Made by a program: the position numbers and the translations under genes. Below the pieces are notes generated by a model that ran no database searches, had not been told where the DNA came from, and saw nothing but the letters and a program-made list of their open reading frames with translations. DNA of 64,000 bases from Conexibacter sp. (lineage in GTDB: Bacteria > Actinomycetota > Thermoleophilia > Solirubrobacterales > Solirubrobacteraceae): contig JBJMLB010000114.1 of the NCBI GenBank assembly GCA_045805465.1, forward strand, positions 2,375 through 66,374, written 5' to 3'. Positions 31,467 through 48,498 of the stretch are shown piece by piece (the stretch's first letter is position 1; every line of letters begins with the position of its first letter).

Positions 31467-32368
31467 GCTCGCACGTCCGGCTCGGCCTCGTCCAGCCGCA
31501 GAGCTTCTGGGGGCAGGACGAGCCACGCAACCTGGAGGAGGCGGTGCGCTACGTGGCGCAGGGCGCCGCCGTCGGTGCCGACCTGCTCCTGTACCCGGAG
31601 CACTACCCGGGGCCGTCGCGCTTGGCCTGTCGCTACGAGGTGATCGAGCCGCTGCGCGCCGCGGCGCGCGAGCACGGCGTCGCGCTCGCTATCGGGACCT
31701 CGCTGGAGACGGCCGACGGATCGGGGAGATACTCGATCGCCACGGTGGTGATCGACCGCACGGGCGAGATCGCCGGCATCGTCCGGCGTACCCATCCGGA
31801 TGCGCCGTACATCTACCACGACATCCCGTACGAGCCGGACGACGAGTACCCGGTGATCGACCTCGGCTGGGGCAAGGTCGCCGTCTCGACGTGCAGCGAG
31901 GCGTTCGTGCCCGAGGTGGCGCGCGTGCTGGCGCTGCGCGGGGCCGAGCTGTGCCTGTTCCCCACCGGCATCCTGATCGACGAGCTCGGCTACACCGACA
32001 ACTGGCGCACGCTGATCCGGGCGCGCGCGATCGAGAACCTCATGTACACGGCCGCGACGGTCAACCTGTACGACCCGTCGTACGCCGACCCCTACCGGCA
32101 GGCGAGACTGGAGAGCGCGCCGAGCGCCTCCGGCATCACGCGCGGGATCGCGATGGTCGCCTCGCCGGAGCGGCTGCTCGCGACCAGCGAGGCGCCGGGG
32201 ATCCTCACCGCCGACCTCGACTTCGAGCGCATCCGCAAGCTGCGCGCGACGGAGGAGGAGCTGATCGTCCCGGCGCCGTACGAGACGATCCCGGGGATCC
32301 TCGGCTGGCCGCGCCCCTCGGTCTACGAGGCGCTGACCGAGGCCGCGTCGGCGAGAGCGTGGGCATGA
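31463..32368 (+). CDS. carbon-nitrogen hydrolase (nitrilase superfamily) amidase
   Basis: The E-K-C triad context is present: LLLYPEH, ...RTHP..., VAVSTCSEAF. ATGA overlap with the upstream gene. Confidence 0.75.
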   Translation: MSSHVRLGLVQPQSFWGQDEPRNLEEAVRYVAQGAAVGADLLLYPEHYPGPSRLACRYEVIEPLRAAAREHGVALAIGTSLETADGSGRYSIATVVIDRTGEIAGIVRRTHPDAPYIYHDIPYEPDDEYPVIDLGWGKVAVSTCSEAFVPEVARVLALRGAELCLFPTGILIDELGYTDNWRTLIRARAIENLMYTAATVNLYDPSYADPYRQARLESAPSASGITRGIAMVASPERLLATSEAPGILTADLDFERIRKLRATEEELIVPAPYETIPGILGWPRPSVYEALTEAASARAWA

Positions 32369-33003
32369 GACTCCACAACGAGTTCACGGTCGCCGCGCCG
32401 CTGCAGCGCACCTGGGAGACACTGCTCGACGTCGAGCGCGTGGCCGGCTGCCTGCCCGGCGCGTCGGTCGAGCCGACCGGCGAGGACAACACCTACCGGG
32501 GCGCGATGAAGATGAAGGTCGGGCCGGTGAACATGGCCTACAGCGGGACGGTGCGCCTGGCCGACGTCGACGCCGACGCGCACGTTGCGAGCTTCGACGC
32601 GCGCGCCAAGGAGACCCGCGGCACCGGCACCGCGGCGGCGGTGATCCGCAACAGCCTCGAGGAAGTCGAGGGTGGGACGCGCGTCGTCGTGGAGACGGAG
32701 CTGAACGTGACGGGGCGGCCCGCGCAGTTCGGGCGCGGGCTGATGGAGGACGTCGCGTCGAAGATGCTCGGCGACTTCGCCGGGCGCCTCGAGCAGCTGG
32801 TGCTCGCCGGGCCGTCGCCCGCCGCAGAGAGCGACGGGGCGTCGGCGCCCACGCAGCCGCCGCCGGCCGAGGAGGCCGCGAGCCTCGACATCGGCTCGGT
32901 GCTGCTGCACGGCTACCGGCGCGAGCTGACGATCGGCGGCGGGCTGCTGGCGCTCGTGCTCGCGTTCCTGCTCGGCCGCCTGAGCAAGCGTTCGAGCGGG
33001 TGA
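32365..33003 (+). CDS. CoxG-like SRPBCC protein with C-terminal TM anchor (module A)
   Basis: FTVAAPLQRTWETLLDVERVAGCLPGA...GPVNMAYSGTV..., then an acidic linker and the TM helix LTIGGGLLALVLAFLLGRL. Confidence 0.8.
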   Translation: MRLHNEFTVAAPLQRTWETLLDVERVAGCLPGASVEPTGEDNTYRGAMKMKVGPVNMAYSGTVRLADVDADAHVASFDARAKETRGTGTAAAVIRNSLEEVEGGTRVVVETELNVTGRPAQFGRGLMEDVASKMLGDFAGRLEQLVLAGPSPAAESDGASAPTQPPPAEEAASLDIGSVLLHGYRRELTIGGGLLALVLAFLLGRLSKRSSG

Positions 33004-35381
33004 TGACCGCAGCGCGGAGCAAGGCTCGTCCGGCGGCGGCGGCGCGGCGCAAGGCACGCGTCGCGGCGCCGACGCCGATCGTCGGCCGCTCGGTTCTGCG
33101 CAAGGAGGACCCGGCGCTGCTGCGCGGGGCCGCACGGTTCGTCGACGACCTGCGAGGCGGCGCGCTGGAGATCGCGATCCTGCGCTCGCCGTTCCCGCAC
33201 GCGCGGATCGCCGCGATCGACGTGGCCGAGGCGCGGCGCCAGCCGGGCGTCGTCGACGTGCTCGTCGCCGCCGACCTGCCCGACGGCGGACCGGTCATCC
33301 CGATGCGGATGTTCAGACAGCCCGGGGCCGAGCGCTTCCTGCAGCGGCCGCTGGCCACCGATCGCGTGCGCTACGTGGGCGAGCCGGTCGCCGTCGTCGT
33401 CGCGACGTCGCGCTACCTGGCCGAGGACGCGGCCGAGCGGATCGCGGTCGACTACGAGCCGCTCGACCCGGTCACCGACATGGAGGCGGCGCTCGCGCCG
33501 GACGCGCCGGTCCTGCACGCCGAGGCGGGCACGAACCTGGCCGCGGCGTTCGACCTCGGCCGCGGCGACGTCGACGCGGCGTTCGCCGCCGCCGACGCGG
33601 TCGTCGAGGTCGAGATCCGCTGCGGCCGGCACGCGGCGGTGCCGATGGAGACGCGCGGGCTGCTCGCGCGGCTCGAGCCCGGCGGCGGGCGGCTCGTCGT
33701 CCACGGCGCGGCGAAGGTCGTCCACGTCAACCGGCGGATCCTCGCCGGCCTGCTCGGCTGGCCGGAAGACCGCATCCGCTTCGTCGAGGAGAGCGTCGGC
33801 GGCGGCTTCGGGGCGCGCGGCGAGTTCTACCCGGAGGACTATCTCGTCCCGTTCTGCGCGCTGCGGCTGGGCCAGGCGGTCGCCTGGACCGAGGATCGCG
33901 AGGAGCACCTGCGCGCGACCAACCACTCGCGCGACCAGCTCGACCGGCTGGCCGCCGCCTTGACCGCCGACGGGCGCTTCCTCGCCCTGCGCGCGGAGCT
34001 GACGATCAACACGGGCGCGTACGTGCGCACCCACGGCAGCGTCGTCCCCGGCATGAGCGGTGGGCTGCTGCCCGGCCCGTACGTGTGGCCCGCGCTGGCC
34101 TGCCACGTGCGTCAGGTCGTCACCAACAAGACGCCCGCCGGGACGTACCGCGCGCCCGGCCGCTACGAGACGACGCTCGCCCGCGAGCGCCTCATCGACG
34201 TGGCGGCGCGGCGGCTGGGGATCGATCCGGTGGAGCTGCGCCGCCGCAACCTCGTCGCGCCCGAGCAGATGCCGTACGACAACGGCAGCGCCACCGACGG
34301 TCACCCCGTCGTCTACGACAGCGGCGACTACCCGCGGCTGCTGGAGCGCGGCCTGGAGCACGTCGTCTGGGAGGAGCTGCGCGCGTGGCGCGCCACGCCC
34401 CCGCAGCGGCCGGAGCTGCGTCGCGGCGTCGCGATCGCGCTGTTCGTGGAGAAGAGCGGCATCGCCCAGTGGGAGTACGCGCGCATGGAGCTCGACAGCC
34501 TCGGGCGGCCCGTCCTGTGCAGCGGCTCGGCGTCCGTCGGCCAGGGCGTGGACACCGTGCTCGCGCAGATCGCAGCGGAGGCGCTCGGCGTGCCGTACGA
34601 GGCGGTGCGCGTCCGCCACGGGGACACCGACGACGTGCCCGACGGCATGGGCGCGTTCGGGAGCCGTGCGACGAGCCTCGGCGGCGCGGCTGCCCACCAG
34701 GCCGCCAGCGCGCTGCGCGAGCGAGTGCTGGAGCTTGCGGCCGCCAAGCTGGACGTCGCCGTCGAAAAGCTCGAGCTGACCGCGACCGGCGTCTCCGTCC
34801 GCGGGGCCCGGGCTGCGGGCGTGACCTTCGCGGAGCTCGTCGCCGCGTCCGGGACGGCCGCGGCGATCGCCGATGGCCGCCGGCCCGGCCTGTCGGAGGA
34901 GGCGTACTTCCGCACCGAGGAGATGAGCTTCCCCTACGGCCTGCACTGCGCCGCCGTCGAGCTGGACGCCGAGACCGGCGCCGTGCGGATCGAGCGCTAC
35001 GGCGTCGCCTACGACGTCGGGCGCGCGATCAACCCGCAGCTCGTCGAGGGCCAGATCGTCGGCGGCCTCGCGCAGGGGCTCGGCGGCGCGCTCTTCGAGG
35101 ACCTCGTCTACGACGACGCGGCCCAGCTCGTCTCGGGCTCGTTCATGGACTACCTGATCCCGACCGCCGTGGAGGTACCAGCAGTGCGTGTGCTGATCAC
35201 CGAGGACTGCCCGACCCAGCGCAGCCCGATCGGCGCGAAGGGCGCCGGCGAGGGCGGGACGACGGCCGCCGGAGCGGCGCTCGCCGGCGCGGTCTCCGAC
35301 GCGCTCGGCGTCGAGGTCACGCGCCTGCCGATGACCCCGGAGTGGATCGTCCGCGCGGCCCGTGGGGAGGCCTGCGCATGA
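33000..35381 (+). CDS. CoxL/xanthine dehydrogenase-family molybdopterin large subunit (module A)
   Basis: LRKEDPALLRGAARFVDD, KTPAGTYRAPGRYE and IGAKGAGEGGT support the family. It lacks the form-I CODH AYxCSFR loop. The start could be GTG 33000 or ATG 33003. Confidence 0.85.
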   Translation: MMTAARSKARPAAAARRKARVAAPTPIVGRSVLRKEDPALLRGAARFVDDLRGGALEIAILRSPFPHARIAAIDVAEARRQPGVVDVLVAADLPDGGPVIPMRMFRQPGAERFLQRPLATDRVRYVGEPVAVVVATSRYLAEDAAERIAVDYEPLDPVTDMEAALAPDAPVLHAEAGTNLAAAFDLGRGDVDAAFAAADAVVEVEIRCGRHAAVPMETRGLLARLEPGGGRLVVHGAAKVVHVNRRILAGLLGWPEDRIRFVEESVGGGFGARGEFYPEDYLVPFCALRLGQAVAWTEDREEHLRATNHSRDQLDRLAAALTADGRFLALRAELTINTGAYVRTHGSVVPGMSGGLLPGPYVWPALACHVRQVVTNKTPAGTYRAPGRYETTLARERLIDVAARRLGIDPVELRRRNLVAPEQMPYDNGSATDGHPVVYDSGDYPRLLERGLEHVVWEELRAWRATPPQRPELRRGVAIALFVEKSGIAQWEYARMELDSLGRPVLCSGSASVGQGVDTVLAQIAAEALGVPYEAVRVRHGDTDDVPDGMGAFGSRATSLGGAAAHQAASALRERVLELAAAKLDVAVEKLELTATGVSVRGARAAGVTFAELVAASGTAAAIADGRRPGLSEEAYFRTEEMSFPYGLHCAAVELDAETGAVRIERYGVAYDVGRAINPQLVEGQIVGGLAQGLGGALFEDLVYDDAAQLVSGSFMDYLIPTAVEVPAVRVLITEDCPTQRSPIGAKGAGEGGTTAAGAALAGAVSDALGVEVTRLPMTPEWIVRAARGEACA

Positions 35382-36256
35382 AGCCGCCGCCCTTCGACTA
35401 CGAGGCGCCGCGCGAGCTCGACGAGGCGCTCGCCCTGCTCGCCGAGCGCGGGGAGGACGGCAAGGTGCTCGCCGGCGGACAGAGCCTGGTCCCCCTGCTC
35501 AACTTCCGGCTCGCCCGTCCCGAGGTCCTGATCGACATCAACGGCGTGCAGGCGCTCGCGACGCTGGGCCGCGAGGGAACGCACCTGCACATCGGCGCGC
35601 TGACGCGCCACGCGCAGGCCGAGCACTCGTCGGTCGTGCGCGAGCAGTGGCCGCTGCTGGCCGACGCGCTGCGCTGGGTCGCGCACCCGCAGATCCGCAA
35701 CCGCGGGACCGTCGGCGGCTCGGTCGCCCACTCCGACCCGTCGGCCGAGCTTCCGGTCGTGCTGTCGGCGCTGGACGCTCGCTACCACGTGCGCTCCGCA
35801 CGCGGGGCGCGGACGCTGGAGCGCGAGGAGATGTTCCTCGGCCAGCTGGAGACCGGCGTGCGCCCCGACGAGCTGCTGTGCGCGATCGAGGTGCCGGCGA
35901 TGGCGCCCGGAGCGGGCTGGGCGTTCGTCGAGTACGCGCGCCGGCACGGCGACTTCGCGCTCGGCGGCACGGCGGTCGTGCTCGACGTGGAGCCCGACGG
36001 CACGGTCGGGCGCGCAGCGATCGCGCTGCTGGGCGCCGGGCCGACGCCGCTGCGCGCCGCCGCCGCCGAGCACGCGCTCGTCGGGCAGGCGGTCGACGAC
36101 GCGGTCGCGCGCGAGGCGGCGGCGCTCGCGGTCGCGGAGATCGCGCCGACCGGGGACATCCACGGCAGCACCGAGTACCGCCGCGATCTCATCGAGACGC
36201 TCGTCGGGCGCGCGTTGGGCGTCGCCGCGGGCCGTGCGAACGGAGGGACGACATGA
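35378..36256 (+). CDS. CoxM-like FAD-binding medium subunit (module A)
   Basis: KVLAGGQSLVPLLNFRLARPEVLIDI...IRNRGTVGGSVAH supports the call. ATGA overlap with the upstream gene. Confidence 0.85.
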   Translation: MKPPPFDYEAPRELDEALALLAERGEDGKVLAGGQSLVPLLNFRLARPEVLIDINGVQALATLGREGTHLHIGALTRHAQAEHSSVVREQWPLLADALRWVAHPQIRNRGTVGGSVAHSDPSAELPVVLSALDARYHVRSARGARTLEREEMFLGQLETGVRPDELLCAIEVPAMAPGAGWAFVEYARRHGDFALGGTAVVLDVEPDGTVGRAAIALLGAGPTPLRAAAAEHALVGQAVDDAVAREAAALAVAEIAPTGDIHGSTEYRRDLIETLVGRALGVAAGRANGGTT

Positions 36257-36765
36257 CACCTCGCAGCATCCGCATCCGGATCAACGGGGAGGAGCATGCC
36301 GCCGAGGTCGAGCCGCGGCTGCTGCTCAGTGACTTCATCCGCCACGAGGCGGGCCTGACCGGCACCCACGTCGGCTGCGAGCACGGCGTCTGCGGCGCCT
36401 GCACCGTACAGCTCGAAGGCCAGCCGATCCGCGCGTGCCTGATGCTCGCCGTGCAGGCCGACGGCCGCTCGATCCGCACGGTCGAGGACCTCGCCGTCTC
36501 GGACGAGGAGCTGCATCCGCTGCAGCAGGCGTTCCACGAGTGCCACGGGCTGCAGTGCGGCTTCTGCACACCCGGCTTCCTGATGAGCCTCGAGCCCGTC
36601 CTCGCGGACGTGCCGCAGCTCAGCGACGCCGAGATCCGCGAGCTGATCGGCGGCAACCTCTGCCGCTGCACCGGATATCAGGGCATCGTCGACGCGGTGC
36701 GCCTCGCGGCGCAGCGCGTCACGACAGGCCCTGACCCGTCAACGCACGAACCCGAAGGAACTTGA
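36253..36765 (+). CDS. CoxS-like [2Fe-2S] small subunit (module A)
   Basis: The Cys clusters GCEHGVCGACTV and CGFCTPG...CRCTGY are present. Confidence 0.9.
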   Translation: MTPRSIRIRINGEEHAAEVEPRLLLSDFIRHEAGLTGTHVGCEHGVCGACTVQLEGQPIRACLMLAVQADGRSIRTVEDLAVSDEELHPLQQAFHECHGLQCGFCTPGFLMSLEPVLADVPQLSDAEIRELIGGNLCRCTGYQGIVDAVRLAAQRVTTGPDPSTHEPEGT

Positions 36766-37517
36766 TGAAGCTGGTCGACCTCACCCACACGTTCACGATC
36801 CACACCCCCGGCTGGGTCGGCTACCCGTCGCCGAAGCTGTCCTACTTCCAGCGCCATGCGACGCACGGGATCGTCTCGCAGTCGCTCGAGCTTCCGCTGC
36901 ACTCCGGGACCCACTTCGACGCCGAGATGCACATCGTCTCCGGTGGCAAGGATCTCGCCTCCGTGCCGATCGACACGCTCTGCCGCGAAGGCGTCATCGT
37001 CGACATCAGCGACGAGATGGACGACTGGGCCGTCATCACCCCGGAGATGATCACGAGTCGCATCGAGGTCAAGAAGGGCGACATCCTCATCTACAACACC
37101 GGCTGGCACCGCTACTTCAACGGGTCCGAGGCCGAGGACGAGGAGCGCTACTACCTGCGCCACCCGGGCGGGGACCGGCGGATGGCCGAGTGGATCGCCG
37201 AGATGGAGCTCGCGTGGACCGGCTTCGACTGCGGTTCCGGCGACCACCCGATGAACACGTCGATCCGCGACAAGCGCCCCGACGCCGCGCGCGCCTTCGA
37301 GCGCCACGCCGGCAAGGCGATCCCCGAGGTGTTCCCCGAGGAGGACCTGTTCGTGATGCACCGCGTGCCGTTCCGGGCGGGCATCACCCACGTCGAGAAC
37401 ATGGGCGGGGACATCGGCTCGATCGGCACCCGCCGCTGCCTGATCGGCGCGTTCCCGATCCCGATCGAGGGCGGCGAGGCGTCGCCGTGCCGCGTGGTGG
37501 CGTTCCTCGATGACTGA
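36765..37517 (+). CDS. cyclase-family protein (kynurenine formamidase / isatin hydrolase fold)
   Basis: The HSGTHFDAEMH motif (HxGTHxDxPxH-like) is present. ATG 36765 shares 1 nt with the coxS stop. Track ORF start 36762 is a TTG. Confidence 0.8.
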   Translation: MKLVDLTHTFTIHTPGWVGYPSPKLSYFQRHATHGIVSQSLELPLHSGTHFDAEMHIVSGGKDLASVPIDTLCREGVIVDISDEMDDWAVITPEMITSRIEVKKGDILIYNTGWHRYFNGSEAEDEERYYLRHPGGDRRMAEWIAEMELAWTGFDCGSGDHPMNTSIRDKRPDAARAFERHAGKAIPEVFPEEDLFVMHRVPFRAGITHVENMGGDIGSIGTRRCLIGAFPIPIEGGEASPCRVVAFLDD

Positions 37518-37863
37518 CGTGCTCTGGGGCACCTTCGCAGCCGTCGACGCGGACGAGCCCTACCCGGGCGTCGTGCGGCGCAGCGTCGACGCGCAGGGCG
37601 CGACCGCGACCCGCTACGAGTTCCGGCCGGGCGCCGCGTTCCCGCTGCACCGCCATCCGCAGGAGCAGATCACGCTGATCGAGCAGGGCGACATCCGCAT
37701 GCGGCTCGGAGCGGAGGAGCACGAGTTCGGCCCGGGCGGCTACACCGTCGTGCCGGGTGGGGTCGAGCACGGGATCACCGCCGGCGCCGACGGCGCCGTC
37801 ATCACAGCGATCGTCGTGCCCCGCCGCGCGGCGGCGGACGCCTACGAGGAGGTGGCCGTATGA
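37510..37863 (+). CDS. cupin-domain protein (117 aa)
   Basis: FPLHRHPQEQITLIEQG...VPGGVEHGI matches cupin motifs 1 and 2. Confidence 0.75.
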   Translation: MTDVLWGTFAAVDADEPYPGVVRRSVDAQGATATRYEFRPGAAFPLHRHPQEQITLIEQGDIRMRLGAEEHEFGPGGYTVVPGGVEHGITAGADGAVITAIVVPRRAAADAYEEVAV

Positions 37864-38618
37864 CGGTTCTCGTCCTGCCGAGCGACGGCGGCGAGCCGCT
37901 CGAGGTCCTCGACGGCGCGGGCATCGCGCGCGCCGTCGTCGGCCCGGCGACCGGTGCGCAGCACCGCACGATGGCGGTCCTCGAGCTGCCGCCCGGCGCC
38001 GGGACGCGCCTGCTGCGCCACCCCGGTGAGGCGGTCTGGTACGTCGATTCGGGGCGGGGGGAGGCGCTCGTCGCGGAGGGCGGCGACTTCGACCTCGACC
38101 CCGGCACGATGATCCACGTCGCGCCCGGCGCCGCCTACTCGCTGCGCGCCGGCGACGAGGCACTGCGGGTGCTCGGCGGCCCCGCGCCGCCGGATCCGGC
38201 GCTGCACGGCGGCGACGCCGGCGAGCTGCCGGCGGACGGCGGAGCGGTCCGCCGCTTCCACCGCGACGAGCCGTCGCGGCTGGCGCCGATGATCTCCAAG
38301 GACGCGCGCCTGGTCGTATGGCTGGGCGTCGGCGCGGAGACGGCGAACATGAACCACGTGCGGCTGGAGCCGGGCGAGGAGAACATGCCGCACCGCCACT
38401 CCGAGTCGGAGGACACGATCGCGATCCTCGAAGGCCGCGGCACGGTCGACGACCTCACGAACGGCCTCTCGCTGCCGTTCGAGGCCGGCGACGTCATCCA
38501 CATCCCGGTCGGCCTCGAGCACCGTGTCAAGGCGGACCGGGGGGCTGCCGTCGTGAGCGTCGGCGGCCCGTGCCCGGCGGACCGGGCGGTGGCGGCGGCG
38601 CCGGCCGAGCGCGCGTGA
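37860..38618 (+). CDS. bicupin protein
   Basis: Two cupin-like halves are present (LLRHPGEAVWYVDSGRG...VAPGAAYSL and MPHRHSESEDTIAILEGRG...IPVGLEHRV). Confidence 0.7.
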   Translation: MTVLVLPSDGGEPLEVLDGAGIARAVVGPATGAQHRTMAVLELPPGAGTRLLRHPGEAVWYVDSGRGEALVAEGGDFDLDPGTMIHVAPGAAYSLRAGDEALRVLGGPAPPDPALHGGDAGELPADGGAVRRFHRDEPSRLAPMISKDARLVVWLGVGAETANMNHVRLEPGEENMPHRHSESEDTIAILEGRGTVDDLTNGLSLPFEAGDVIHIPVGLEHRVKADRGAAVVSVGGPCPADRAVAAAPAERA

Positions 38619-39460
38619 CCCGGATCGCGGTCGCGCAGCTCACCGGCGTCGTCGGGGACTGCGCGGGCAACCGGGCCCGCACCGTCGCGGCGGCCGAGGA
38701 GGCGTTCGCGCGCGGCGCCGAGGTCGTCGTGCTGCCCGAGCTGATCGTCCCCGGCTACGGCTGGGACGCGGCGGACCTGGCGCGCGACGCCGAGCAGCTC
38801 GACGGCGAGACGGTCGCGGCGTGGACGGCGGTCGCGCGCGAGGCCGGCGGCCTCGTCGCGGGCGGCTTCGCGGAGCGGGCGGGCGAGGACCTCTTCAACA
38901 CGGCGGTCCTCGTCGGCCCCGACGGAGTGCTGCTCCACTACCGCAAGCTGCACCTGTTCGCCGGCGAGAAGGAGACGTTCACGCCCGGCGACCGCGGCCT
39001 GCCCGTCGTCGAGACCGCGGTCGGGACCGTGGGGCTGTGCGTCTGCTATGACCTGCGCTTCGTCGAGACCCTGCGCGTGCTCGCGCTGCGCGGCGCCGAC
39101 CTCGTCTGCGTCCCGACCGCATGGGTGCCCGGCTTCGACGACGCCCTGTGGGACGCCGAGGGCTTCTGCCCGCAGGCGCGCACGGCGCTCGTGCAGGCGA
39201 ACCTCGACCAGGTCGCGATCGCGTGCGCATCGCAGGCGGGCGCCTCCGGCGGGTTCCGCTTCCTCGGCTCGTCGGTGATCGGCGACGCCCGCGGAACGTG
39301 CGTCGCCGGGCCGCTGCCAGGCGACGGCGAGGCGACCGCGATCGCGGAGATCGACCTCGACGACGTCCGTGCCGCCCGCGACCGCGGCACCGGCATCCGG
39401 CCCCGCGCCGACCGACGCACCGACGTCTACGCGATCGCAGTCGGCAACGAGCGGATGTAG
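38615..39460 (+). CDS. carbon-nitrogen hydrolase (nitrilase superfamily) amidase
   Basis: GTG 38615 overlaps the upstream stop. IAVAQL...VVVLPEL...YRKLHLF...VGLCVCYDLRFVE shows the E, K, C triad. Confidence 0.8.
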   Translation: MTRIAVAQLTGVVGDCAGNRARTVAAAEEAFARGAEVVVLPELIVPGYGWDAADLARDAEQLDGETVAAWTAVAREAGGLVAGGFAERAGEDLFNTAVLVGPDGVLLHYRKLHLFAGEKETFTPGDRGLPVVETAVGTVGLCVCYDLRFVETLRVLALRGADLVCVPTAWVPGFDDALWDAEGFCPQARTALVQANLDQVAIACASQAGASGGFRFLGSSVIGDARGTCVAGPLPGDGEATAIAEIDLDDVRAARDRGTGIRPRADRRTDVYAIAVGNERM

Positions 39461-39484
39461 CGTCCGCGCTGGCGCCGCCGCCGC

Positions 39485-40938: not shown

Positions 40939-41826
40939 ATGGAATTGCGGCAGCTGCGGTACCTCGTCGCGCTCGCCGACGAGCAGCACTTCACGCGCGC
41001 GGCCGCCCGCTCCCGCGTCGCGCAGCCGGCCCTCTCGCAGCAGATCCGCAAGCTGGAGGAGGAGCTCGGCCTGTCGCTCGTGGACCGCACGACCCGTCGC
41101 GTCGCGCTGACGGAGGCGGGCACGCTGCTCGTCGCGCGCGCCCGTCGCGTGCTCGCCGAGCTGGACGCCGCCGACGCGGAGCTGCAGCAGCTCACCGGCC
41201 TGCTCGCCGGGCGGGTGACGATCGGCCTGACGCAGACGCCCGGCCCGTTCGACCTGCTGCCGCTGCTGGCGGAGTTTCACGCCCGCTTCCCCGCGGTCGA
41301 GCTCGTGGTGCGGGAGGATCTCAGCACCACGCTCGCCGCGGAGCTGCGCGCCGACGCGCTCGACGTGGCGATGGTCTCGAACGTCGGCGCGGCCGACCGC
41401 GAGGGGCTCGTGCTGGAGCCGCTGGCGCGCGAGCCGCTCGTCGCGGCGCTGCCGCCCGAGCATCGGCTCGCCGGGCGGCGCCGGATCGGGCTGGTGGAGC
41501 TGCAAGACGAGGACTTCGTCGCCTTCCGCGAGGGCGCGACGATCCGCGAGGCGGTCGCGCGCGCCGCGCTAGCGGCCGGCTTCGCGCCGCGGATCTCCTT
41601 CGAGGCCCACGAGCTGGCCCGCACCCGCGCGATCGTCGCCGCCGGCCTCGGCGTCGCGATCTTGCCGCGCTCGGATGCGCGCGGTCCCGGCCCCGCCGTG
41701 GCCGCCGTCGAGCTCGTGCGTCCGACACTGACGCACGCGATCTCGCTCGCGACACGGGCGGGCCGCCGACCCTCGCCGGCGGCGCGAGCGCTGATCGAGC
41801 TGGCCCGCGCGACGTACGGCCCCTGA
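40939..41826 (+). CDS. LysR-family transcriptional regulator
   Basis: MELRQLRYLVALADEQHFTRAAARSRVAQPALSQQIRKLEEELG. The gene is divergent from the CoA-transferase genes. Confidence 0.9.
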   Translation: MELRQLRYLVALADEQHFTRAAARSRVAQPALSQQIRKLEEELGLSLVDRTTRRVALTEAGTLLVARARRVLAELDAADAELQQLTGLLAGRVTIGLTQTPGPFDLLPLLAEFHARFPAVELVVREDLSTTLAAELRADALDVAMVSNVGAADREGLVLEPLAREPLVAALPPEHRLAGRRRIGLVELQDEDFVAFREGATIREAVARAALAAGFAPRISFEAHELARTRAIVAAGLGVAILPRSDARGPGPAVAAVELVRPTLTHAISLATRAGRRPSPAARALIELARATYGP

Positions 41827-41955: not shown

Positions 41956-43353
41956 GTGCGGTGCCTCATGCGTAGCGGCTCGCCCGTCGCCTGGCCCGTG
42001 TCCGAGCTCGTCGCGGCCTACCGCCGCCGCGACCTCTCGCCCGTCGAGGTGACCGAGGAGGCGCTCACGCGGATCGCCGAGCTCGATCGCGAGCTGCATG
42101 CCTTCCAGACCGTGACGGCCGGCCTCGCCCGCGAGCAGGCGCTGCAGGCGGAGGCGGCATACGGACGGGGGGAGACGGCGCCGCTGCTCGGCGTTCCCGT
42201 CTCCGTCAAGGACGTCTTCGACGTGCGCGGCGTCGTCACGACGCTCGGCTCGCTCGTGCACCGCGGCGACGTCGCCGAGTCTGACTCCGGCGTCGTACGG
42301 CGGCTGCGCGCCGCCGGCGCGGTCATCACCGGCAAGACCAACACGGCCGAGTTCGGGCAGTCGGCGACGACCGAGAACCTGCTCGGAGCCGACACGCGCA
42401 ACCCCTGGGACTCGGCGCGCACGCCCGGCGGCTCCAGCGGCGGCGCGGCGGCGTCGGTCGCGGCCGGGCTCTCGACGCTCGCGATCGGCTCCGACGGCGG
42501 CGGCTCGATCCGCATCCCGGCCGCGTTCACCGGGCTGTTCGGGCTCAAGCCCACGCACGGTCTGTGCCTCGACGAGGGCCACTTCCGCGCGATGACCGAC
42601 TTCTCCAGCCCCGGCCCGCTCGCGTGGCGGACCGCCGACGCGCGCGTGCTGCTCGGCGTGCTCGCCGACCGCTCCTACCCCGCGCGCCCGGTGGCGCGCG
42701 CGCTGCGCATCGCCTGGTGCCCGCAGCCCGAGGGTCGTCCGGTCGACCGTGGGGTGGCCGACCTCGCGGCCGAGGCGGTCGTCGCGCTGGAGGGGCTCGG
42801 GCACGAGGTCGTCGCCACCGAGCTGCCCCTGGCCGGGTGGGCCGACATCTTCGGACCGCTCGTGCTCGCCGACGAGCACCGCGAACGCGGCCATCTGCTC
42901 GACGCCGACCCCGCGCAGCTGACCGACTACGCGCGCCGCGCGCTGGAGGCGGGGCGGGCGCTCGACCCCGCCGAGGTCGAGCGGGCCCGTCGCGACCTGC
43001 CGCGCTTTCGCGGGCGCATCGCGGGGCTGTTCGCCCACTTCGACGTGCTCGTCACGCCGACCACCGCCGTGCCCGCCTTCCCGCTCGGCGAGCGCCCGCG
43101 CGTGATCGACGGGACCCGTGTCGACGGGTTGTGGGGCGCGGTGCCGTTCGCGGTGCCGTTCAGCGTCGCCGGCATCCCCGCCGCGACGGTTCCGTGCAGG
43201 CTCTCGGACGGGCTGCCGGTCGGCGTGCAGCTGGCGGCGCCGCCGCTCGCGGAGCAGCTCCTGCTCGACGTCTCGGCACAGCTCGAGGAAGCGCTCGCGT
43301 TCGACGCGACGCCGGTCGTGGAGCGCTGGGCGCTGCCGCACGTCTCCTCATGA
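41956..43353 (+). CDS. amidase-signature (AS) family amidase
   Basis: GVPVSVKDVFDV...GGSSGGAAASVAAG...GSDGGGSIRIPAAF supports the call. An alternative ATG lies at 41968. Confidence 0.85.
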   Translation: MRCLMRSGSPVAWPVSELVAAYRRRDLSPVEVTEEALTRIAELDRELHAFQTVTAGLAREQALQAEAAYGRGETAPLLGVPVSVKDVFDVRGVVTTLGSLVHRGDVAESDSGVVRRLRAAGAVITGKTNTAEFGQSATTENLLGADTRNPWDSARTPGGSSGGAAASVAAGLSTLAIGSDGGGSIRIPAAFTGLFGLKPTHGLCLDEGHFRAMTDFSSPGPLAWRTADARVLLGVLADRSYPARPVARALRIAWCPQPEGRPVDRGVADLAAEAVVALEGLGHEVVATELPLAGWADIFGPLVLADEHRERGHLLDADPAQLTDYARRALEAGRALDPAEVERARRDLPRFRGRIAGLFAHFDVLVTPTTAVPAFPLGERPRVIDGTRVDGLWGAVPFAVPFSVAGIPAATVPCRLSDGLPVGVQLAAPPLAEQLLLDVSAQLEEALAFDATPVVERWALPHVSS

Positions 43354-44090
43354 GCGCGCCGGTCGAGGTCGAGCGCAGCGCGGGCGTCACGACGCTTCGG
43401 CTCGCGCAGCCGCGGCGCCGCAACGCGCTCTCGGAGGCTGTCCTGACCATCCTGCGCGATGAGCTGGCGCCCGCGCGGCTGGCCGCGACGACCGCGGTCG
43501 TGCTCACGGCCGCCGGGGCCTCGTTCAGCGCCGGGGCCGACCTCGACGAGCTGACCGGCACCTCCGCCGATCTCGCCTTCGACGACCTGCTGGCCGACGT
43601 CACGACGGCGATTCGGCAGGCGCCGGTGCCTGCGATCGCCGCGATCGAGGGCGCCTGCGTCGGCGCCGCCGTCGACCTCGCGATGGCGTGCGACGTGCGG
43701 ATCGCCTCCGAGACCGCGTTCTTTGGCGTGCCGGCCGTGCGGCTCGGCCTGCTCTACAACCCCGACTCGCTCGTGCGCCTGCGCGAAGCGCTGCCGTCCC
43801 AGACCTCCGCGCGGCTGCTGCTGCTCGGCGAGCGGATCGGCGGGCACGACGCAGTCGCGGCGGGCCTGGCGTGCTGCTGCGTGCCGGCGGGCACGGCGTT
43901 GGAGCGGGCGCACGCGCTCGCGGCCGACGCGCCGACCACCAGCCGCGAGGCGATGTCCGCGACCAAGGCCCTCCTGACCGGCGCGGCGGACGCGACGAGC
44001 AGCCGTGAGGTGCGACTGCGCCTGCTCGACTCGCCGGAGCGACTCCGTGCCGTGACCGCGGCGAAGCAACGACTCCACTCGAAGGGATGA
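43350..44090 (+). CDS. enoyl-CoA hydratase/isomerase (crotonase) family protein
   Basis: LRLAQPRRRNALS...SFSAGADLDEL...AAIEGACVGAAVDLAMACD supports the call. ATGA overlap with the amidase gene. Confidence 0.8.
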   Translation: MSAPVEVERSAGVTTLRLAQPRRRNALSEAVLTILRDELAPARLAATTAVVLTAAGASFSAGADLDELTGTSADLAFDDLLADVTTAIRQAPVPAIAAIEGACVGAAVDLAMACDVRIASETAFFGVPAVRLGLLYNPDSLVRLREALPSQTSARLLLLGERIGGHDAVAAGLACCCVPAGTALERAHALAADAPTTSREAMSATKALLTGAADATSSREVRLRLLDSPERLRAVTAAKQRLHSKG

Positions 44091-44121: not shown

Positions 44122-44616
44122 CTACTCCTGCTCCTCCTGCTGCACAGCCTCCACGCGCGCGGCCGCGAGGCGCACGGCGTCGACGATGCCCTGATAGCCG
44201 GTGCAGCGGCAGAGGTTGCCGCCGATCAGGCCGCGGATCTCGTCGTCGCTGAGCTGCGGGACGGACGCGAGCACAGGCTCCAGCGACATCAGGAAGCCGG
44301 GCGTGCAGAAGCCGCACTGCAGCCCGTGCGTCTCGTGGAAGGCCTGCTGGAGCGGGTGCAGCTCGTCGCCGTCGGCGAGCGCCTCGACCGTGCGCACCTG
44401 GCGCTCGTGCGCCTGCACCGCGAGGATCAGGCAGGAGCGCACCGGGTCGCCCTCCAGCTGGACCGTGCAGGCGCCGCAGACGCCGTGCTCGCAGCCGACG
44501 TGCGTCCCCGTCAGGCCGGCCTCGTGGCGGATGAAGTCCGACAGCAGCAGCCGCGGCTCGACCTCGCGCTGGTAGCGCACGCCGTTGATCTCGATGCTGA
44601 CGCGGACGCTGCTCAT
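44122..44616 (-). CDS. CoxS-like [2Fe-2S] small subunit (module B)
   Basis: 39 consecutive residues (EVEPRLLLSDFIRHEAGLTGTHVGCEHGVCGACTVQLEG) are identical to the module A small subunit. Confidence 0.9.
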   Translation of the reverse strand: MSSVRVSIEINGVRYQREVEPRLLLSDFIRHEAGLTGTHVGCEHGVCGACTVQLEGDPVRSCLILAVQAHERQVRTVEALADGDELHPLQQAFHETHGLQCGFCTPGFLMSLEPVLASVPQLSDDEIRGLIGGNLCRCTGYQGIVDAVRLAAARVEAVQQEEQE

Positions 44617-45497
44617 GCGGGCTCCTCCTGCCGTGTGGCGCGCTCGGCGGCGGTGACGAGCGCCCGCCGCACGAGCGTTCCGATCAGATCGCGGCGGTAC
44701 GCGCTGCTGCCGTGGATGCTGCCGGCCGGCTCGATGTCGCGCACGGCGTCCGCGGCGGCCTGCGTGAACGCCGGCAGCTCCGGGGCCGCGCCGCGCAACC
44801 CGAGCTCGGCGGCGCTCGCGCGCAGCGGCACGCGGCCGGCGCCGAGCAGCGCGATCGCGGCGCTCGCGATCCGGCCGGCGCCGTCGAGGCTCAGCACGGC
44901 GCCGGCGCCGCCGAGCGCGTAGTCGCCGTGGCGGCGGGCGAACTCGAGCCAGGCCGAGCCGGCCGCCTGAGGCATCGGCGGCAGCTCGATCTCGGTCAAC
45001 AGCTCGTCCAGCGCGATCCCGCTCTGCAGCTGGTCGACGAACATCTCGCCGCAGTCGAGCACGCGGCGCCCACGCGTTGAGGCGACGTGGAAGCGGGCGT
45101 CGAGCGCGGTCAGCACGACGGGAATCTCCGCGGCGGGGTCGGCGTGCGCGACGGAGCCGCCGATCGTCCCGCGGTTGCGGATCTGCGCGTGCGCCACGCA
45201 GCCGATCGCCTCCGACAGCAGCGGCCAGTGCCGTGTCACGAGCAGCGAGCGCTCGACCGCGGCGTGCCGCGTGAGCGCGCCGATCCGCAGCGTTCCGGCG
45301 ACGCGGCGCACGCCGGCGAGGCCGGTCACGCGGTTGACGTCGATCAGCAGCTCTGGCCGCGCGAGGCGGAAGTTCAGCAGCGGCACGAGGCTCTGGCCGC
45401 CGGCGAGGACCTTTGCGTCCTCGCCGTGGCGGGCCAGCAGCGCGAGCGTCTCGTCGAGCGTCTTGGGCGCCGCGTAGGCGAAGGCCGGCGGCTTCAC
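44613..45497 (-). CDS. CoxM-like FAD-binding medium subunit (module B)
   Basis: GTG 45497 overlaps the coxL stop (GTGA). KVLAGGQSLVPLLNFRLARPELLIDV...IRNRGTIGGSVAH supports the call. Confidence 0.85.
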   Translation of the reverse strand: MKPPAFAYAAPKTLDETLALLARHGEDAKVLAGGQSLVPLLNFRLARPELLIDVNRVTGLAGVRRVAGTLRIGALTRHAAVERSLLVTRHWPLLSEAIGCVAHAQIRNRGTIGGSVAHADPAAEIPVVLTALDARFHVASTRGRRVLDCGEMFVDQLQSGIALDELLTEIELPPMPQAAGSAWLEFARRHGDYALGGAGAVLSLDGAGRIASAAIALLGAGRVPLRASAAELGLRGAAPELPAFTQAAADAVRDIEPAGSIHGSSAYRRDLIGTLVRRALVTAAERATRQEEPA

Positions 45498-47824
45498 GCG
45501 GCCGCTCCGGAGCCGGCGGCGACGATCCACTCCGGCAGGATCGGCAACGACGTGACCTCGACACCGACCGCGTCCGAGACGGCGTTGGCGATCGCCGCGC
45601 CCGCCGCCGTCGTGCCGCCCTCGCCGGCGCCCTTGGCGCCGAGCGGCACGCGCGGGGTTGGGGCATGCTCGGTGATCAGCAGCGCCAGCTCTGGCACCTC
45701 GGTCGCCGTCGGCAGCAGGTAGTCCATGAGCGATCCGGCGACCAGCTGGCCGTCCTCGTCGTAGGCGAGGTGCTCGTAGAGCGCGCCGCCGAGCCCCTGC
45801 GCGAAGCCGCCCAGAAGCTGGCCCTCGACGAGCTTCGGGTTGATCGCGCGGCCGACGTCGTACGCGATCGAGTAGCGCTCGATCCTGACGCTCCCCAGCT
45901 CGACGTCGAGCTCGACGGCGGCGCAGTGCAGGCCGTACGGGAAGCTCATCTGCTCGCTCGTGAAGGTCGCCTCGTCGCTGAGCGCATCCGTCGCCGCGGC
46001 GGCCAGCGCGGCCAGCGACAGCGTCGCGCGCGGGCTGCCGCGCACCTTGAAGCGACCCTGCGCCAGCTCGAGCTCGCCGGGGGCGCACTCGAGCTGCTCG
46101 GCAGCCGTCTCCAGGAGCCGCGCGCGCAGCGCGACGGAGGCCTCCGCGACGGCCGCGCCGCCGAGGCTCGTCCCGCGGCTGCCGAACGAGCCCATGCCCT
46201 TCGGCACCTCGTCGGTGTCGCCGTGCCGCACGCCGATCGCCTCGTAGGGCACGTCGAGCGTCTCGGCGCAGATCTGCGCGAGCACCGTCTCCAGGCCCTG
46301 GCCGAGCGAGGCGGCGCCGGTGTAGACGACGACCGCGCCGTTGTCCTCGACCTCGACGCGCGCGTACTCCCACACGCCGATCCCGCTCTTCTCGACGAAC
46401 AGCGCGACGCCCAGCCCACGCCGCAGGTGGGGCGCGACCTCGGCGTCGCGCCAGGCGCGCATGCGCTCGTAGCCGAAGTGCTCGAGCCCCTCATCGAGCA
46501 GGCGCGGGTAGTCGCCGCTGTCGTAGACGACGGGGTGGCCGTCGGTGCTGCTGCCGTTCGCGTAGGGCATCTGCTCGGGCAGCACGAGGTTCTGCCGGCG
46601 CAGCTCGCAGGGGTCGCGGCCCAGCTTGCGGGCGGCGACGTCGATCACGCGCTCGCGCGCGAGCGTCGCCTCGTAGCGCCCGGGCGCGCGGTAGGTGCCG
46701 GCAGGCGTCTTGTTGGTCACGACCTGACGCACGTCGAGCGCCAGCGCCGGGAAGCGATAGGGGCCCGGCAGCAGACCGGCGCTCATGCCGGGCACGACGC
46801 CCCCGTGCGTACGCACGTACGCGCCCGTGTTCATGACGATCTCGGCCCGCAGCCCCAGGAAGGTGCCGTCGGCGGCCAGCGCGATCGCGATCCGCTCGGT
46901 CTGCTCGCGCGAGTGGTTGGTGGCGCGCAGGTGCTCCTCGCGGTCCTCGGTCCAGCGCACGGGGCGGCCGAGCCGGATCGCGCAGAAGGGGATCAGGTAG
47001 TCCTCGGGATACAGCTCGCCGCGCGCGCCGAAGCCGCCGCCGACGTGCGGCTCGACGAAGCGGATGCGCTCCAGCGGCCAGTCGAGCATGCCCGCGAGCA
47101 GCTTGCGGTTCGTGTGGGCGACCTTGGTGGGGCCCCAGACAGTGAGCTGGGCGCCATCGTCGCTGGTCGCGGCGAGCAGGCCGCGCGTCTCCATCGGCAC
47201 GGCTGCGTGGCGCCCGCAGCCGATCAGCTCCTCGACGACGAGGTCGGCCGCGGCGAACGCGGCGGCGGCGTCGCCGTCGGCGATCTCGTACGCCGAGACG
47301 AGGTTGGAGCCGGCCTCGGGGTGCAGCAGCGGCGCCTCGTCCGCCATCGCCGCGGTGGCGTCGAGCGCGACGGGCAGCGGCTCCCAGTCGACCTCGATCA
47401 GCTCCAGCGCGTCTTCGGCGACGTAGCGCGAGTCGGCCACGACGACCGCGACGGGCTCGCCGACGTAGCGCACGCGCCCGCGCGCGAGCGGGCGCTGCAG
47501 GAAGCGCTCCATCCCCGGGCGGGGGAACATCCGGATCGGGATCGGAGGACCGCCGCCCGGCAGGTCGGCCGAGCTGATGACGTCCACGACGCCGTCGTGC
47601 CCGCGCGCGGCGCTCGTGTCGATCGCGCGCACGCGGCCGTGCGGCAGTGGGGAGCGCAGGATCGCCGCGTGCAGCGCGTCGGGCGACGGCAGGTCGTCGA
47701 CGAAGCGTCCCGCGCCGCGCAGCAGGACGTCGTCCTCCTTGCGCAGCGGCGAGCTGCCGATCGGCCACGTCGGCGCGTCCTCGGTGGGAACGGCGGGCGC
47801 TGGCAGGACCGTCGACTGCGTCAT
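45494..47824 (-). CDS. CoxL/xanthine dehydrogenase-family molybdopterin large subunit (module B)
   Basis: LRKEDDVLLRGAGRFVDD, KTPAGTYRAPGRYE and LGAKGAGEGGT support the family. The protein aligns collinearly with the module A large subunit. Confidence 0.85.
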   Translation of the reverse strand: MTQSTVLPAPAVPTEDAPTWPIGSSPLRKEDDVLLRGAGRFVDDLPSPDALHAAILRSPLPHGRVRAIDTSAARGHDGVVDVISSADLPGGGPPIPIRMFPRPGMERFLQRPLARGRVRYVGEPVAVVVADSRYVAEDALELIEVDWEPLPVALDATAAMADEAPLLHPEAGSNLVSAYEIADGDAAAAFAAADLVVEELIGCGRHAAVPMETRGLLAATSDDGAQLTVWGPTKVAHTNRKLLAGMLDWPLERIRFVEPHVGGGFGARGELYPEDYLIPFCAIRLGRPVRWTEDREEHLRATNHSREQTERIAIALAADGTFLGLRAEIVMNTGAYVRTHGGVVPGMSAGLLPGPYRFPALALDVRQVVTNKTPAGTYRAPGRYEATLARERVIDVAARKLGRDPCELRRQNLVLPEQMPYANGSSTDGHPVVYDSGDYPRLLDEGLEHFGYERMRAWRDAEVAPHLRRGLGVALFVEKSGIGVWEYARVEVEDNGAVVVYTGAASLGQGLETVLAQICAETLDVPYEAIGVRHGDTDEVPKGMGSFGSRGTSLGGAAVAEASVALRARLLETAAEQLECAPGELELAQGRFKVRGSPRATLSLAALAAAATDALSDEATFTSEQMSFPYGLHCAAVELDVELGSVRIERYSIAYDVGRAINPKLVEGQLLGGFAQGLGGALYEHLAYDEDGQLVAGSLMDYLLPTATEVPELALLITEHAPTPRVPLGAKGAGEGGTTAAGAAIANAVSDAVGVEVTSLPILPEWIVAAGSGAAA

Positions 47825-48498
47825 GCGCGCGCGCGGACCTTGAGCTCGATCGAGGGGCCGCGGCGCCCGCGCGCGCGCAGCAGGCCGAGCGCCACCAGCA
47901 CGGCGACGAGCACGCCGGCGACGCCGAGCTCGCGGCGGTAGTTGCGCCAGACCATGCCGCCGAGGTCGAGCGTCGCCGCCTCGTCCTCGGGCAGTGCGGC
48001 GGGACTGCCGGCGTCGTCTGTCTCGGCGCGCGTCACGCCCGCGGCGGTGTCGAGCACGAGCTGCTGCAGGCGGGCGGCGAAGTCGTCGAGCATGCGCCCG
48101 GCGACGTCCTGCATCATGCCGCGGCCGAACTGGGCAGGCCGACCGGTGATGTCGAGCGTGGTCGCGACGACGACGCGGGTCTCGCCATCCTGCTCGCTCA
48201 GCTCGTTGCGGATCGTCGCGGTCGCGGTGCCGGTGCCCTTCGTCTCCTTCGCCTGTGCGCGGAAGACGGTCACGTGGCTATCCTCGTCGACCTCGGCCAG
48301 GCGGACGGTGCCGCCGTACTGCACGCTGACCGGGCCGATCCGCATCTTCATCTGACCGCGGTAGGCGCCGTCCTCGCCGACCGGCTCGATCGTCGCGCCC
48401 GGCAGGCACGACGCCACGCGCTCGACGTCGAGCAGCGCCGCCCAGGTCTGCTGCAGAGGCGCCGCCACGAGAAATTCATTGTTCAAGGTGACAGACAA
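47821..48498 (-). CDS. CoxG-like SRPBCC protein with C-terminal TM anchor (module B)
   Basis: FLVAAPLQQTWAALLDVERVASCLPGA...GPVSVQYGGTV..., followed by the TM helix LGVAGVLVAVLVALGLL. Confidence 0.8.
   Translation of the reverse strand: MSVTLNNEFLVAAPLQQTWAALLDVERVASCLPGATIEPVGEDGAYRGQMKMRIGPVSVQYGGTVRLAEVDEDSHVTVFRAQAKETKGTGTATATIRNELSEQDGETRVVVATTLDITGRPAQFGRGMMQDVAGRMLDDFAARLQQLVLDTAAGVTRAETDDAGSPAALPEDEAATLDLGGMVWRNYRRELGVAGVLVAVLVALGLLRARGRRGPSIELKVRARA

Follow-up and report, generated by a model that had tools for sequence, protein, structure and literature searches.

The 64,000-nucleotide stretch analyzed here, termed the window, comes from Conexibacter sp. (assembly GCA_045805465.1, contig JBJMLB010000114.1, positions 2,375 to 66,374) and carries two modules for molybdenum hydroxylases of the xanthine dehydrogenase (XDH)/CoxLMS family. 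The modules, here named A and B, each contain four genes in the order coxG-L-M-S and lie in inverted orientation. We propose that they belong to two separate N-heterocycle catabolic loci that meet tail to tail, each equipped with its own four-component molybdenum hydroxylase. To this explanation as a whole, which includes the gene content of the second locus and an old split between the two modules, we assign a probability of about 0.7. Genes were called with guidance from the G+C content at third codon positions (GC3), which gave a clean map of this DNA of about 73% G+C. Domains were assigned by Pfam profile search, and subfamily membership was checked against NCBIfam equivalog models and their cutoffs. 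For comparison, we used related contigs from other genomes and samples (L001 to L090).

Two hydroxylase modules and their gene neighborhoods

Module A lies on the plus strand and encodes the SRPBCC subunit CoxG-A (32365-33003; Pfam COXG), the type 1 catalytic subunit L-A with its molybdopterin cytosine dinucleotide (MCD) site (33000-35381; Ald_Xan_dh_C, MoCoBD_1 and MoCoBD_2), the flavin adenine dinucleotide (FAD) subunit M-A (35378-36256; FAD_binding_5 and CO_deh_flav_C), and S-A, which carries two [2Fe-2S] clusters (36253-36765; Fer2 and Fer2_2). Module B repeats this set with the same domains on the minus strand, comprising S-B (44122-44616), M-B (44613-45497), the likewise type 1 subunit L-B (45494-47824), and CoxG-B (47821-48492, or 48498 if a TTG start is used). 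The family domains score well over the Pfam gathering thresholds in all subunits of A and B. A first-pass annotation, made from the letters of the window, had described two paralogous, inverted G-L-M-S modules, and this description holds: both are present, and their proteins are 61% (CoxG), 68% (L), 61% (M), and 77% (S) identical. The modules share 74.4% DNA identity across 4326 aligned positions, and a repeat search recovered 11 collinear inverted arms that are 72-88% complementary, far above chance. Their S ends face each other 7356 bp apart.

That annotation had also singled out an identical 39-residue stretch in the S subunits and a supposedly unusual loop in the L subunits. The identical stretch is real, but it is also 100% identical in the S orthologues of L002, L005, and L022 and thus reflects the conserved [2Fe-2S] domain. 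The loop, KTPAGTYRAPGRYE, is indeed common to L-A and L-B, yet it is an ordinary feature, the family's active-site loop, which reads KTPVGAYRAPGRYE in KdhL from pAO1 of Paenarthrobacter nicotinovorans (PMC8305194). Each coxG is a stand-alone gene inside its hydroxylase operon and overlaps the L gene by 4 nt. Both CoxG copies are probably tail-anchored, in agreement with the membrane tethering suggested earlier. Kyte-Doolittle hydropathy (19-residue window) peaks at 2.04 over residues 188-206 of CoxG-A, followed by a basic tail, and at 2.38 over residues 189-207 of CoxG-B, again followed by basic residues. A hydrophobic C-terminal helix is also found in the CoxG orthologues of L001 and L002 and is a clade-wide trait.

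Module A is embedded in a run of 16 genes on the plus strand (locus 1, 23475-39460), whose 15 junctions include 13 with overlaps of 1-8 nt. Judged by this layout, locus 1 is one translationally coupled operon that includes module A and extends through its last gene. The first gene encodes a GntR/UTRA regulator (23475-24236; Pfam GntR and UTRA), which overlaps the next gene by 4 nt and occupies the same place in L086. It is followed by L' (24233-26563; assigned by Pfam), a type 2 catalytic large subunit previously called an orphan L, and by a Bmp/PnrA-type ATP-binding cassette (ABC) importer consisting of a binding protein, an ATPase, and two permeases (26753-31466; Bmp, two ABC_tran and two BPD_transp_2 domains), which is kept in L002, L005, L022, and L086. 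CN-hydrolase 1 of the nitrilase superfamily (31463-32368; CN_hydrolase) precedes module A and has orthologues at 65-70% identity; its position is occupied by an isochorismatase in L001. In CN-hydrolase 1 and its L002 and L086 orthologues, the Glu and Cys of the catalytic triad are kept and the catalytic Lys column apparently holds an Arg, a tentative call since RRTHP is set against YRKLH/YKKIH in an alignment of about 27% identity.

Downstream of module A, the operon continues with cyclase-1 (36762-37517), a PF04199 metal-dependent amidohydrolase with the metal motif HSGTHFDAEMH. At 81% identity to its orthologues, cyclase-1 is the most conserved protein of the operon. A small cupin follows with a full metal motif, HRHPQEQ...PGGVEH (37510-37863; Cupin_2), and then a bicupin (37860-38618; two Cupin_2 domains), presumed to be a ring-cleaving (di)oxygenase, whose metal site (HRHSESE...PVGLEH) is found in the C-terminal barrel only and whose homologues are labelled 'quercetin dioxygenase-like cupin' in the source annotation. 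The operon ends with CN-hydrolase 2 (CN2; 38615-39460), assigned by Pfam, which resembles amidases and carbamoylases by its PDB and NCBIfam neighbors and carries Cys144. The gene order from the GntR regulator through L', the Bmp importer, CN-hydrolase 1, CoxG-L-M-S, cyclase-1, cupin, and bicupin to CN2 recurs in L002, L005 (a 2.6-Mb contig), L022, and L086, and a variant exists in L001, all of them from Thermoleophilia or related metagenome-assembled genomes (MAGs). No module B was found beside any of these five operons in the flanks of up to 10 kb that were inspected. Directly upstream of locus 1 lie genes for a MocA-like molybdenum-cofactor cytidylyltransferase (21644-22246, plus strand; NTP_transf_3, with 107 bits against the NCBIfam matur_MocA_YgfJ model and its cutoff of 186) and an XdhC/CoxI-family chaperone for molybdenum-cofactor insertion (22251-23366, minus strand; XdhC_CoxI and XdhC_C). 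In L002, a MobA-like gene follows the orthologous operon.

Between the facing S genes, Pfam confirms the gene list of the first-pass annotation: a cyclase, a cupin, a bicupin, a CN-hydrolase, CoA-transferase subunits B and A, a LysR regulator, an amidase, and a crotonase. The two 3-oxoacid CoA-transferase genes (39485-40845, minus strand; CoA_trans, with the NCBIfam pcaI/pcaJ-scoA/B subfamilies passing their cutoffs) diverge from LysR1 (40933-41826, plus strand; Pfam). The amidase-signature amidase and the crotonase (ECH; 41956-44090, plus strand; both by Pfam) overlap by 4 nt and are translationally coupled. Where these genes had been treated as one accessory core, the comparisons point to a composite of an A-linked and a B-linked part. 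The first 2.7 kb, from cyclase-1 to CN2, form the tail of module A's operon because they are coupled to it and their order is conserved elsewhere. A bicupin homologue with 94% identity to that of the window pointed to contig L087, which matches positions 35391-41823 at 94.9% DNA identity, covering M-A, S-A, cyclase-1, cupin, bicupin, CN2, the CoA-transferase pair, and LysR1; in this relative, too, the CoA-transferase pair is kept with module A. Beyond LysR1, L087 continues with 6.8 kb of genes that match nothing in the window. Homology ends abruptly with the LysR1 stop codon (about 41824 in the window and 6421 in L087), where no repeat, tRNA, or integrase is visible. The amidase-crotonase pair lies on the module B side of this breakpoint. 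Short contigs from other samples keep parts of that side: L089 retains the amidase, the crotonase, and the start of S-B at 97.5% identity, and L090 retains cyclase-2, LysR2, CoxG-B, and L-B at 96.5%. On this evidence, module B and its neighbors lie in strain-variable DNA. The block between the paralogues should hence not be taken as a unit, as a 95% identical relative shows the 'core' straddling a breakpoint. Consensus scans for promoters and terminators and an Rfam scan returned one weak promoter-like site, no terminators, and two tRNAs only.

On its far side, module B has a second set of partner genes. LysR2 (48582-49496, minus strand; Pfam) lies upstream of module B and diverges from cyclase-2, with gaps of 89 and 206 bp. 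Cyclase-2 is followed by a methylmalonyl-CoA-epimerase-like VOC protein, a malonyl-CoA-synthase-like ligase, and an SDR protein (49703-53258, plus strand; Pfam and NCBIfam). Sets of the cyclase-2/VOC/ligase/SDR type recur beside CoxLMS modules in L069, L011, L015-19, L031, L039, and L043. The Rubrobacteraceae contig L069 encodes relatives of cyclase-2 (68%), the VOC protein (62%), the ligase (53%), and the SDR (63%), with a crotonase and CoxG in the same operon, and in L011 (Conexibacteraceae) an SDR (71%) and a ligase (52%) diverge from a G-L-M-S module. Such sets also occur in Dormibacterota, Chloroflexota, and Brevibacillus. We therefore regard locus 2 as likely to consist of module B, LysR2, the operon for cyclase-2, the epimerase-like protein, ligase, and SDR, and the amidase-crotonase pair. 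The L011 contig, from a MAG, additionally shows a G-L-M-S module followed by a convergent, unrelated M-S-L module at 40% identity (9276-17456), and abutting hydroxylase modules thus appear commonplace.

Age and origin of module B

The explanation that we favor treats L-B as an old paralogue of L-A whose split predates the diversification of the sampled A orthologues. Relatives of the L subunits were taken from a protein database of 5.8 billion sequences. Some 31 proteins from other contigs proved closer to L-A (69-77% identity) than L-B is, and no relative of L-B above 70% identity was found among the 5.8 billion. The best matches of L-B are the same A-type proteins, with L-A ranking about 17th. 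In a neighbor-joining tree (757 columns, 100 bootstraps, L' as outgroup), L-B branches at the base of the A-type clade and is sister to L-A in 0 of 100 replicates. CoxG, L, and M each place B as outgroup to A and its orthologues. A long-branch artefact was rejected as explanation for the position of L-B, since its distances to five outgroups equal those of other clade members and no rate acceleration is seen. A local duplication giving rise to A and B, as the first-pass annotation had it, is difficult to reconcile with an L-B that is never sister to L-A and lies basal to about 31 L-A orthologues.

Silent positions likewise point to an old split. Four-fold-site identity between A and B is 0.54 (CoxG), 0.64 (L), 0.56 (M), and 0.70 (S). 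Since orthologues of different genomes span 0.49-0.65 and base composition alone sets a floor of about 0.47, synonymous sites appear close to saturation. Identical DNA tracts extend to 38 bp at most, only six reach 25 bp, and none of at least 50 bp was found along the two aligned modules. Recent duplication and recent gene conversion were both rejected from the nucleotide identity profile, the tract lengths, the four-fold sites, and the gene-by-gene comparison with orthologues.

How module B came to its present place permits a somewhat unlikely second answer, namely that module B and the block from the amidase through the SDR were acquired horizontally from an unsampled relative, instead of stemming from an ancient duplication within the lineage. 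The lack of an L-B relative above 70% identity, the position of the block in DNA that is not syntenic with the 95% relative, and the occurrence of locus-2-type gene sets in several phyla would all fit a transfer. Against it, the block cannot be told apart from the remaining window by G+C or GC3, its boundaries showed neither an integrase or transposase gene nor a tRNA or flanking repeats, and L-B groups basally with the Solirubrobacterales A-clade and not with a distant lineage. A transfer would, moreover, depart from the two-locus explanation in the origin of B only, not in its role.

Active sites, predicted pathways, and orientation

The active sites were compared by aligning the KdhL positions tested by mutagenesis (PMC8305194) to the L proteins of the window. 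L-A and L-B carry the hydroxylase signature, comprising the catalytic Glu (KdhL E748; AGEGG), the loop AGTYRAPGR, and the MCD-stacking GGGFGARGE. The entire first shell (GGGFGARGE, VRTHG, AGTYRAPGR, FGSR, AGEGG) is identical in L-A, L-B, and the consensus of the A-clade, and among 334 near-invariant columns of the clade, L-B deviates in no more than 15. Given these identical first-shell residues, module B looks like an isoenzyme-like copy without a remodelled pocket, and L-B most likely hydroxylates the same heterocycle as L-A or a very similar one. The nearest solved structure to both proteins is KdhL (7dqx), to which L-A is 39% identical. However, W551 and E345 of KdhL, substrate-binding residues that are essential by mutagenesis (PMC8305194), align to F and G in L-A and L-B. 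None of the three L subunits reaches an NCBIfam equivalog cutoff.

L' differs from this pattern. It is 42-43% identical to L-A and L-B, its pocket is unlike that of L-A, and its best PDB match is the quinoline 2-oxidoreductase Qor (1t3q). Orthologues at 66-68% identity are present in L001, L002, and L005, and L086 has a 768-aa L in the same position. The window contains no third M, S, or CoxG that could serve L', and two L genes with one G-M-S set are found in the window, L001, L002, L005, and L086. Since L' is conserved in the same operons, has another pocket, and lacks further M, S, or CoxG partners in the window, we take it most likely to be a second catalytic subunit served by the electron-transfer set of module A. 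Relatives of L' sit either just after the GntR gene or directly upstream of coxG (L001, 6983-9316; L086, 1304-3610). Two L genes with one G-M-S set also appear in the order M-S-L-L in loci of Neobacillus niacini, Peribacillus, Paenibacillus, and Brevibacillus.

Under the two-locus explanation, a substrate would enter through the Bmp-type ABC importer and its ring would be hydroxylated twice, by L' and L-A drawing on a single G-M-S electron-transfer set. The cupin enzymes would then open the ring, and cyclase-1, a kynurenine-formamidase-type metal amidohydrolase, together with CN2 would remove formyl or amide nitrogen. The CoA-transferase/LysR1 pair travels with locus 1. Module B, under another regulator, would feed a CoA-dependent lower branch. 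The comparisons establish the anatomy, paralogy, and age of the modules, their conserved contexts, the breakpoint, and the identity of the two pockets; we infer the sharing of subunits, the order of reactions, the roles of cyclase, cupins, and CN-hydrolases, and the substrate class. The motifs required for the lower route are present: HxGTHxDxxxH in both cyclases, full cupin motifs, and the Cys in CN2.

By analogy, the substrate is most likely a pyridine-type N-heterocycle. Such a ring and a maleamate-like lower route are suggested by the match to the N. niacini locus and by a NicX-like gene in a Brevibacillus cluster. No gene-level assignment was found in the isonicotinate and B. niacini literature, and PDB sequence searches with cyclase-1 and the bicupin gave weak, generic matches only. 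A more specific version, which we consider unlikely, holds that loci of the locus 1 type encode a multi-phylum pyridine-type pathway. Two different L subunits would work on one tail-anchored CoxG-M-S set, and the maleamate-pathway enzymes NicX, NicD, and NicF would have non-orthologous stand-ins in a bicupin dioxygenase, a cyclase-family hydrolase of the kynurenine-formamidase type, and a nitrilase-superfamily amidase, while module B would divert the same hydroxylated intermediate to a CoA branch of ligase, epimerase-like protein, crotonase, and SDR. As a less likely variant, the genes could be the unassigned ones of the actinobacterial uracil/thymine dehydrogenase in the oxidative pyrimidine pathway. 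Hints in this direction come from the Bmp transporter, from the CN-hydrolases that resemble carbamoylases, and from the ligase and the VOC protein, which resemble malonyl-CoA synthase and methylmalonyl-CoA epimerase, respectively. Yet no AtzD/Bar-family barbiturase was seen in the window or in about ten related loci, and the NicX-like gene in Brevibacillus points to pyridines, so the pyrimidine pathway was downgraded to a minor variant. On a Rhodococcus ruber plasmid (L003, NZ_CP145321.1, 10127-14825), homologues of the window's bicupin (46%), CN-hydrolase (52%), and cyclase (55%) lie directly downstream of a Rieske oxygenase and a PDR reductase and not of a molybdenum hydroxylase, which suggests a portable lower-pathway cassette.

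Several observations weigh against the two-locus explanation or parts of it. The sharing of one G-M-S set by L' and L-A is read from gene content. The amidase-crotonase pair is tied to locus 2 by the breakpoint and by a weak match to the crotonase of L069 (36% over 108 residues). Both PMC6214936 and the gene layout of pAO1 had suggested that cyclase-1 and CN2 might be the HpoH and omega-amidase of a 2,3,6-trihydroxypyridine branch, but direct comparison gave no support: cyclase-1 has no blastp match to the pAO1 cyclase (PKC) at E<=1e-3 and no detectable pairwise similarity to an HpoH-type cyclase, cyclase-2 is 27% identical to the pAO1 cyclase, and CN2 is just 30% identical to the pAO1 omega-amidase NIT. 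The lower-pathway roles hence follow from family-level chemistry, and the functions of this clade's proteins and their substrate are predictions from sequence. The L tree was built by neighbor joining and not by maximum likelihood. In 65 of its 100 bootstraps, L-B falls inside the most recent common ancestor of the A-like set, so its placement at the base is approximate. Lastly, the 3' half of the S genes is 88% identical between A and B, compared with 78-80% for three orthologues. Over the same stretch, A and L001 are 90% identical, and A and B disagree at 21% of third positions. This would indicate, at most, a small and old gene-conversion patch.

The first-pass annotation had proposed that the duplication reflects either two sequential ring hydroxylations or two related substrates. 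The second part, extended to separate regulons, is plausible; the first is improbable. If A and B performed consecutive hydroxylations of one substrate, in the manner of Ndh and Kdh, both loci would serve one pathway. This would echo pAO1, where two paralogous sets on opposite strands of one island act at C6 and then at C2, and it would agree with the adjacency of loci 1 and 2 and with the presence of cyclase-family and C-N hydrolase genes in both. However, the first shell is the same in L-A and L-B, whereas the pairs NdhL/KdhL and L'/L-A differ strongly there. Orthologous locus-1 operons are complete with L' and L-A and have no B nearby, and the DNA past LysR1 is unrelated in the 95% relative. 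With its orthologues at 66-68% identity, L' is instead the conserved candidate partner for a second hydroxylation.

More remote is the idea that A and B arose by local inverted duplication, flank a common core, and act as arms for RecA-dependent inversion of the 7.4-kb segment, which would let each promoter acquire the genes downstream of the other. For about 4.3 kb, the arms are collinear and inverted, the S 3' half reaches the 88% noted above, and a crossover would yield in-frame hybrid genes. The arms also have six identical tracts of 25-38 bp in common, close to the minimal processing segment reported for RecA-dependent recombination in Escherichia coli. The first-pass annotation stated that its model would fall if nucleotide identity were under about 70% with no long identical tracts and a phylogeny spoke against duplication. 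Long tracts are indeed lacking and the tree speaks against a local duplication, while identity, at 74%, lies slightly above the 70% line. At this identity, with no tract of at least 50 bp, synonymous sites near saturation, and A and B never sisters, the modules do not have the features of a recent inverted duplication competent for recombination. The supposed core is cut by the strain-level breakpoint, and its first 2.7 kb belong to module A's operon. Nor does the segment resemble a programmed invertible switch: the sole long inverted repeats are diverged coding arms, and no recombinase domain was detected by Pfam in any gene from 21.6 to 53.3 kb, the segment and its surroundings included. Contigs of close relatives show only the local arrangement of the window, a comparison blind to crossover inside L. 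Inversion by homologous recombination is therefore unlikely and largely refuted, and the inverted orientation of A and B is incidental, the repeats being too diverged for practical recombination.

That the modules encode aerobic carbon monoxide dehydrogenases (CODHs) can be dismissed: source names such as 'aerobic carbon-monoxide dehydrogenase large subunit', given to many homologues in Joint Genome Institute (JGI) annotation, a coxG gene, and high yet sub-threshold scores with NCBIfam CODH models stand against the loop AGTYRAPGR in place of AYRCSF of the Oligotropha carboxidovorans CODH (PMC8305194), 460/463 bits with TIGR02416 compared with a cutoff of 991, no CoxD/E/F (MoxR or VWA) genes seen in the loci, and operons that are rich in C-N hydrolases and carry an importer. 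The L-A/L-B family is often named CO dehydrogenase by the source, probably a systematic mis-annotation. Capacity for CO oxidation in Thermoleophilia should not be deduced from the clade with the TYRAPG loop.

Two further features of the window lie apart from both loci. A gene cluster at 55271-60972 may be a dedicated respiratory branch for a beta-propeller dehydrogenase of the pyrroloquinoline quinone (PQQ) type, which it encodes together with a cytochrome c, a fusion of COX2 and cytochrome c, and a COX1 that is unusually long at 774 aa. G+C drops to 64% over 4001-6000, compared with about 73% elsewhere, and no confident GC3 gene call was obtained in 3881-5688.

Comparison with known systems

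Among characterized enzymes, the form I CODH CoxMSL of O. carboxidovorans shares the three-subunit architecture, the cofactors, and the CoxG accessory protein with the modules, but differs by its Cys-containing loop, which is not found in the window's L subunits, as well as by the NCBIfam cutoffs and gene context. In overall design, the modules can be likened to the 3-hydroxypyridine dehydrogenase HpdA1A2A3A4 of Ensifer adhaerens HP1, a four-component enzyme in which the SRPBCC protein HpdA3, with a predicted transmembrane segment, is essential (bioRxiv 10.1101/2020.01.08.898148). The window has the corresponding gene content, a separate SRPBCC gene whose product has a hydrophobic C-terminus and a predicted membrane location. 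The likeness drawn here is one of design. The Hpd system has a different gene order, needs phosphoenolpyruvate (PEP)-utilising accessory proteins, and is linked to the classical maleamate pathway.

Closer in gene content are L031 (Brevibacillus) and L069 (Rubrobacteraceae), both known from genes alone, which share cyclase-2, the VOC protein, the SDR, a CN-hydrolase or ligase, CoxG, M, S, and two L subunits with the window at 39-68% identity. L031 ends with a protein whose sole PDB match is NicX, a 2,5-dihydroxypyridine dioxygenase. In both clusters, one M-S set is accompanied by two L genes; module B carries only one.

The nicotinate cluster of Neobacillus (Bacillus) niacini offers a parallel to locus 1, with one G-M-S set and two L genes followed by ring-processing and amide-hydrolysing enzymes. 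Its locus comprises XdhC, CoxG-M-S-L1-L2, an FAD monooxygenase, DUF3891, a maleate-isomerase-like protein, DsrE, and an isochorismatase. Two sequential molybdenum-dependent hydroxylations are known biochemically for this organism, and the description of its nicotinate cluster matches the locus (PMC4256190 and references therein). With L-A and L-B, L1 shares 46-48% identity. The lower pathway, however, employs the FAD monooxygenase, the maleate-isomerase-like protein, and an isochorismatase-type amidase instead of the cyclase, cupins, and CN-hydrolase of the window, and the N. niacini CoxG, at 149 aa, lacks the tail-anchor extension.

Paralogous XDH-family modules in one catabolic island are already known from pAO1 with NdhLMS and KdhLMS, which makes the arrangement in the window fairly ordinary, and the inverted orientation is without demonstrable consequence. 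What stands out is the conserved 16-gene operon, which probably encodes an uncharacterised N-heterocycle pathway of abundant soil Actinomycetota and represents a reasonable target for substrate discovery. In pAO1, the two sets likewise lie on opposite strands, with ndhMSL on one strand and kdhSM on the other, next to a kdhL operon that holds a PF04199 cyclase, an SRPBCC/CoxG protein, and a CN-hydrolase and adjoins a small cupin. KdhL is structurally the nearest counterpart of L-A and L-B and has a nearly identical active-site loop. The proteins of the window are 39% (L), 45-48% (M), 54-57% (S), and 41-44% (CoxG) identical to those of pAO1; the cupin, like cyclase-1, has no pairwise match among its pAO1 counterparts. 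Unlike pAO1, the window has no dhpH flavin monooxygenase, DHPON hydrolase, or CoxD/E. The two systems also differ in how their paralogues relate to each other: the Ndh and Kdh enzymes of pAO1 have different pockets and act in sequence, whereas A and B of the window have one pocket type.

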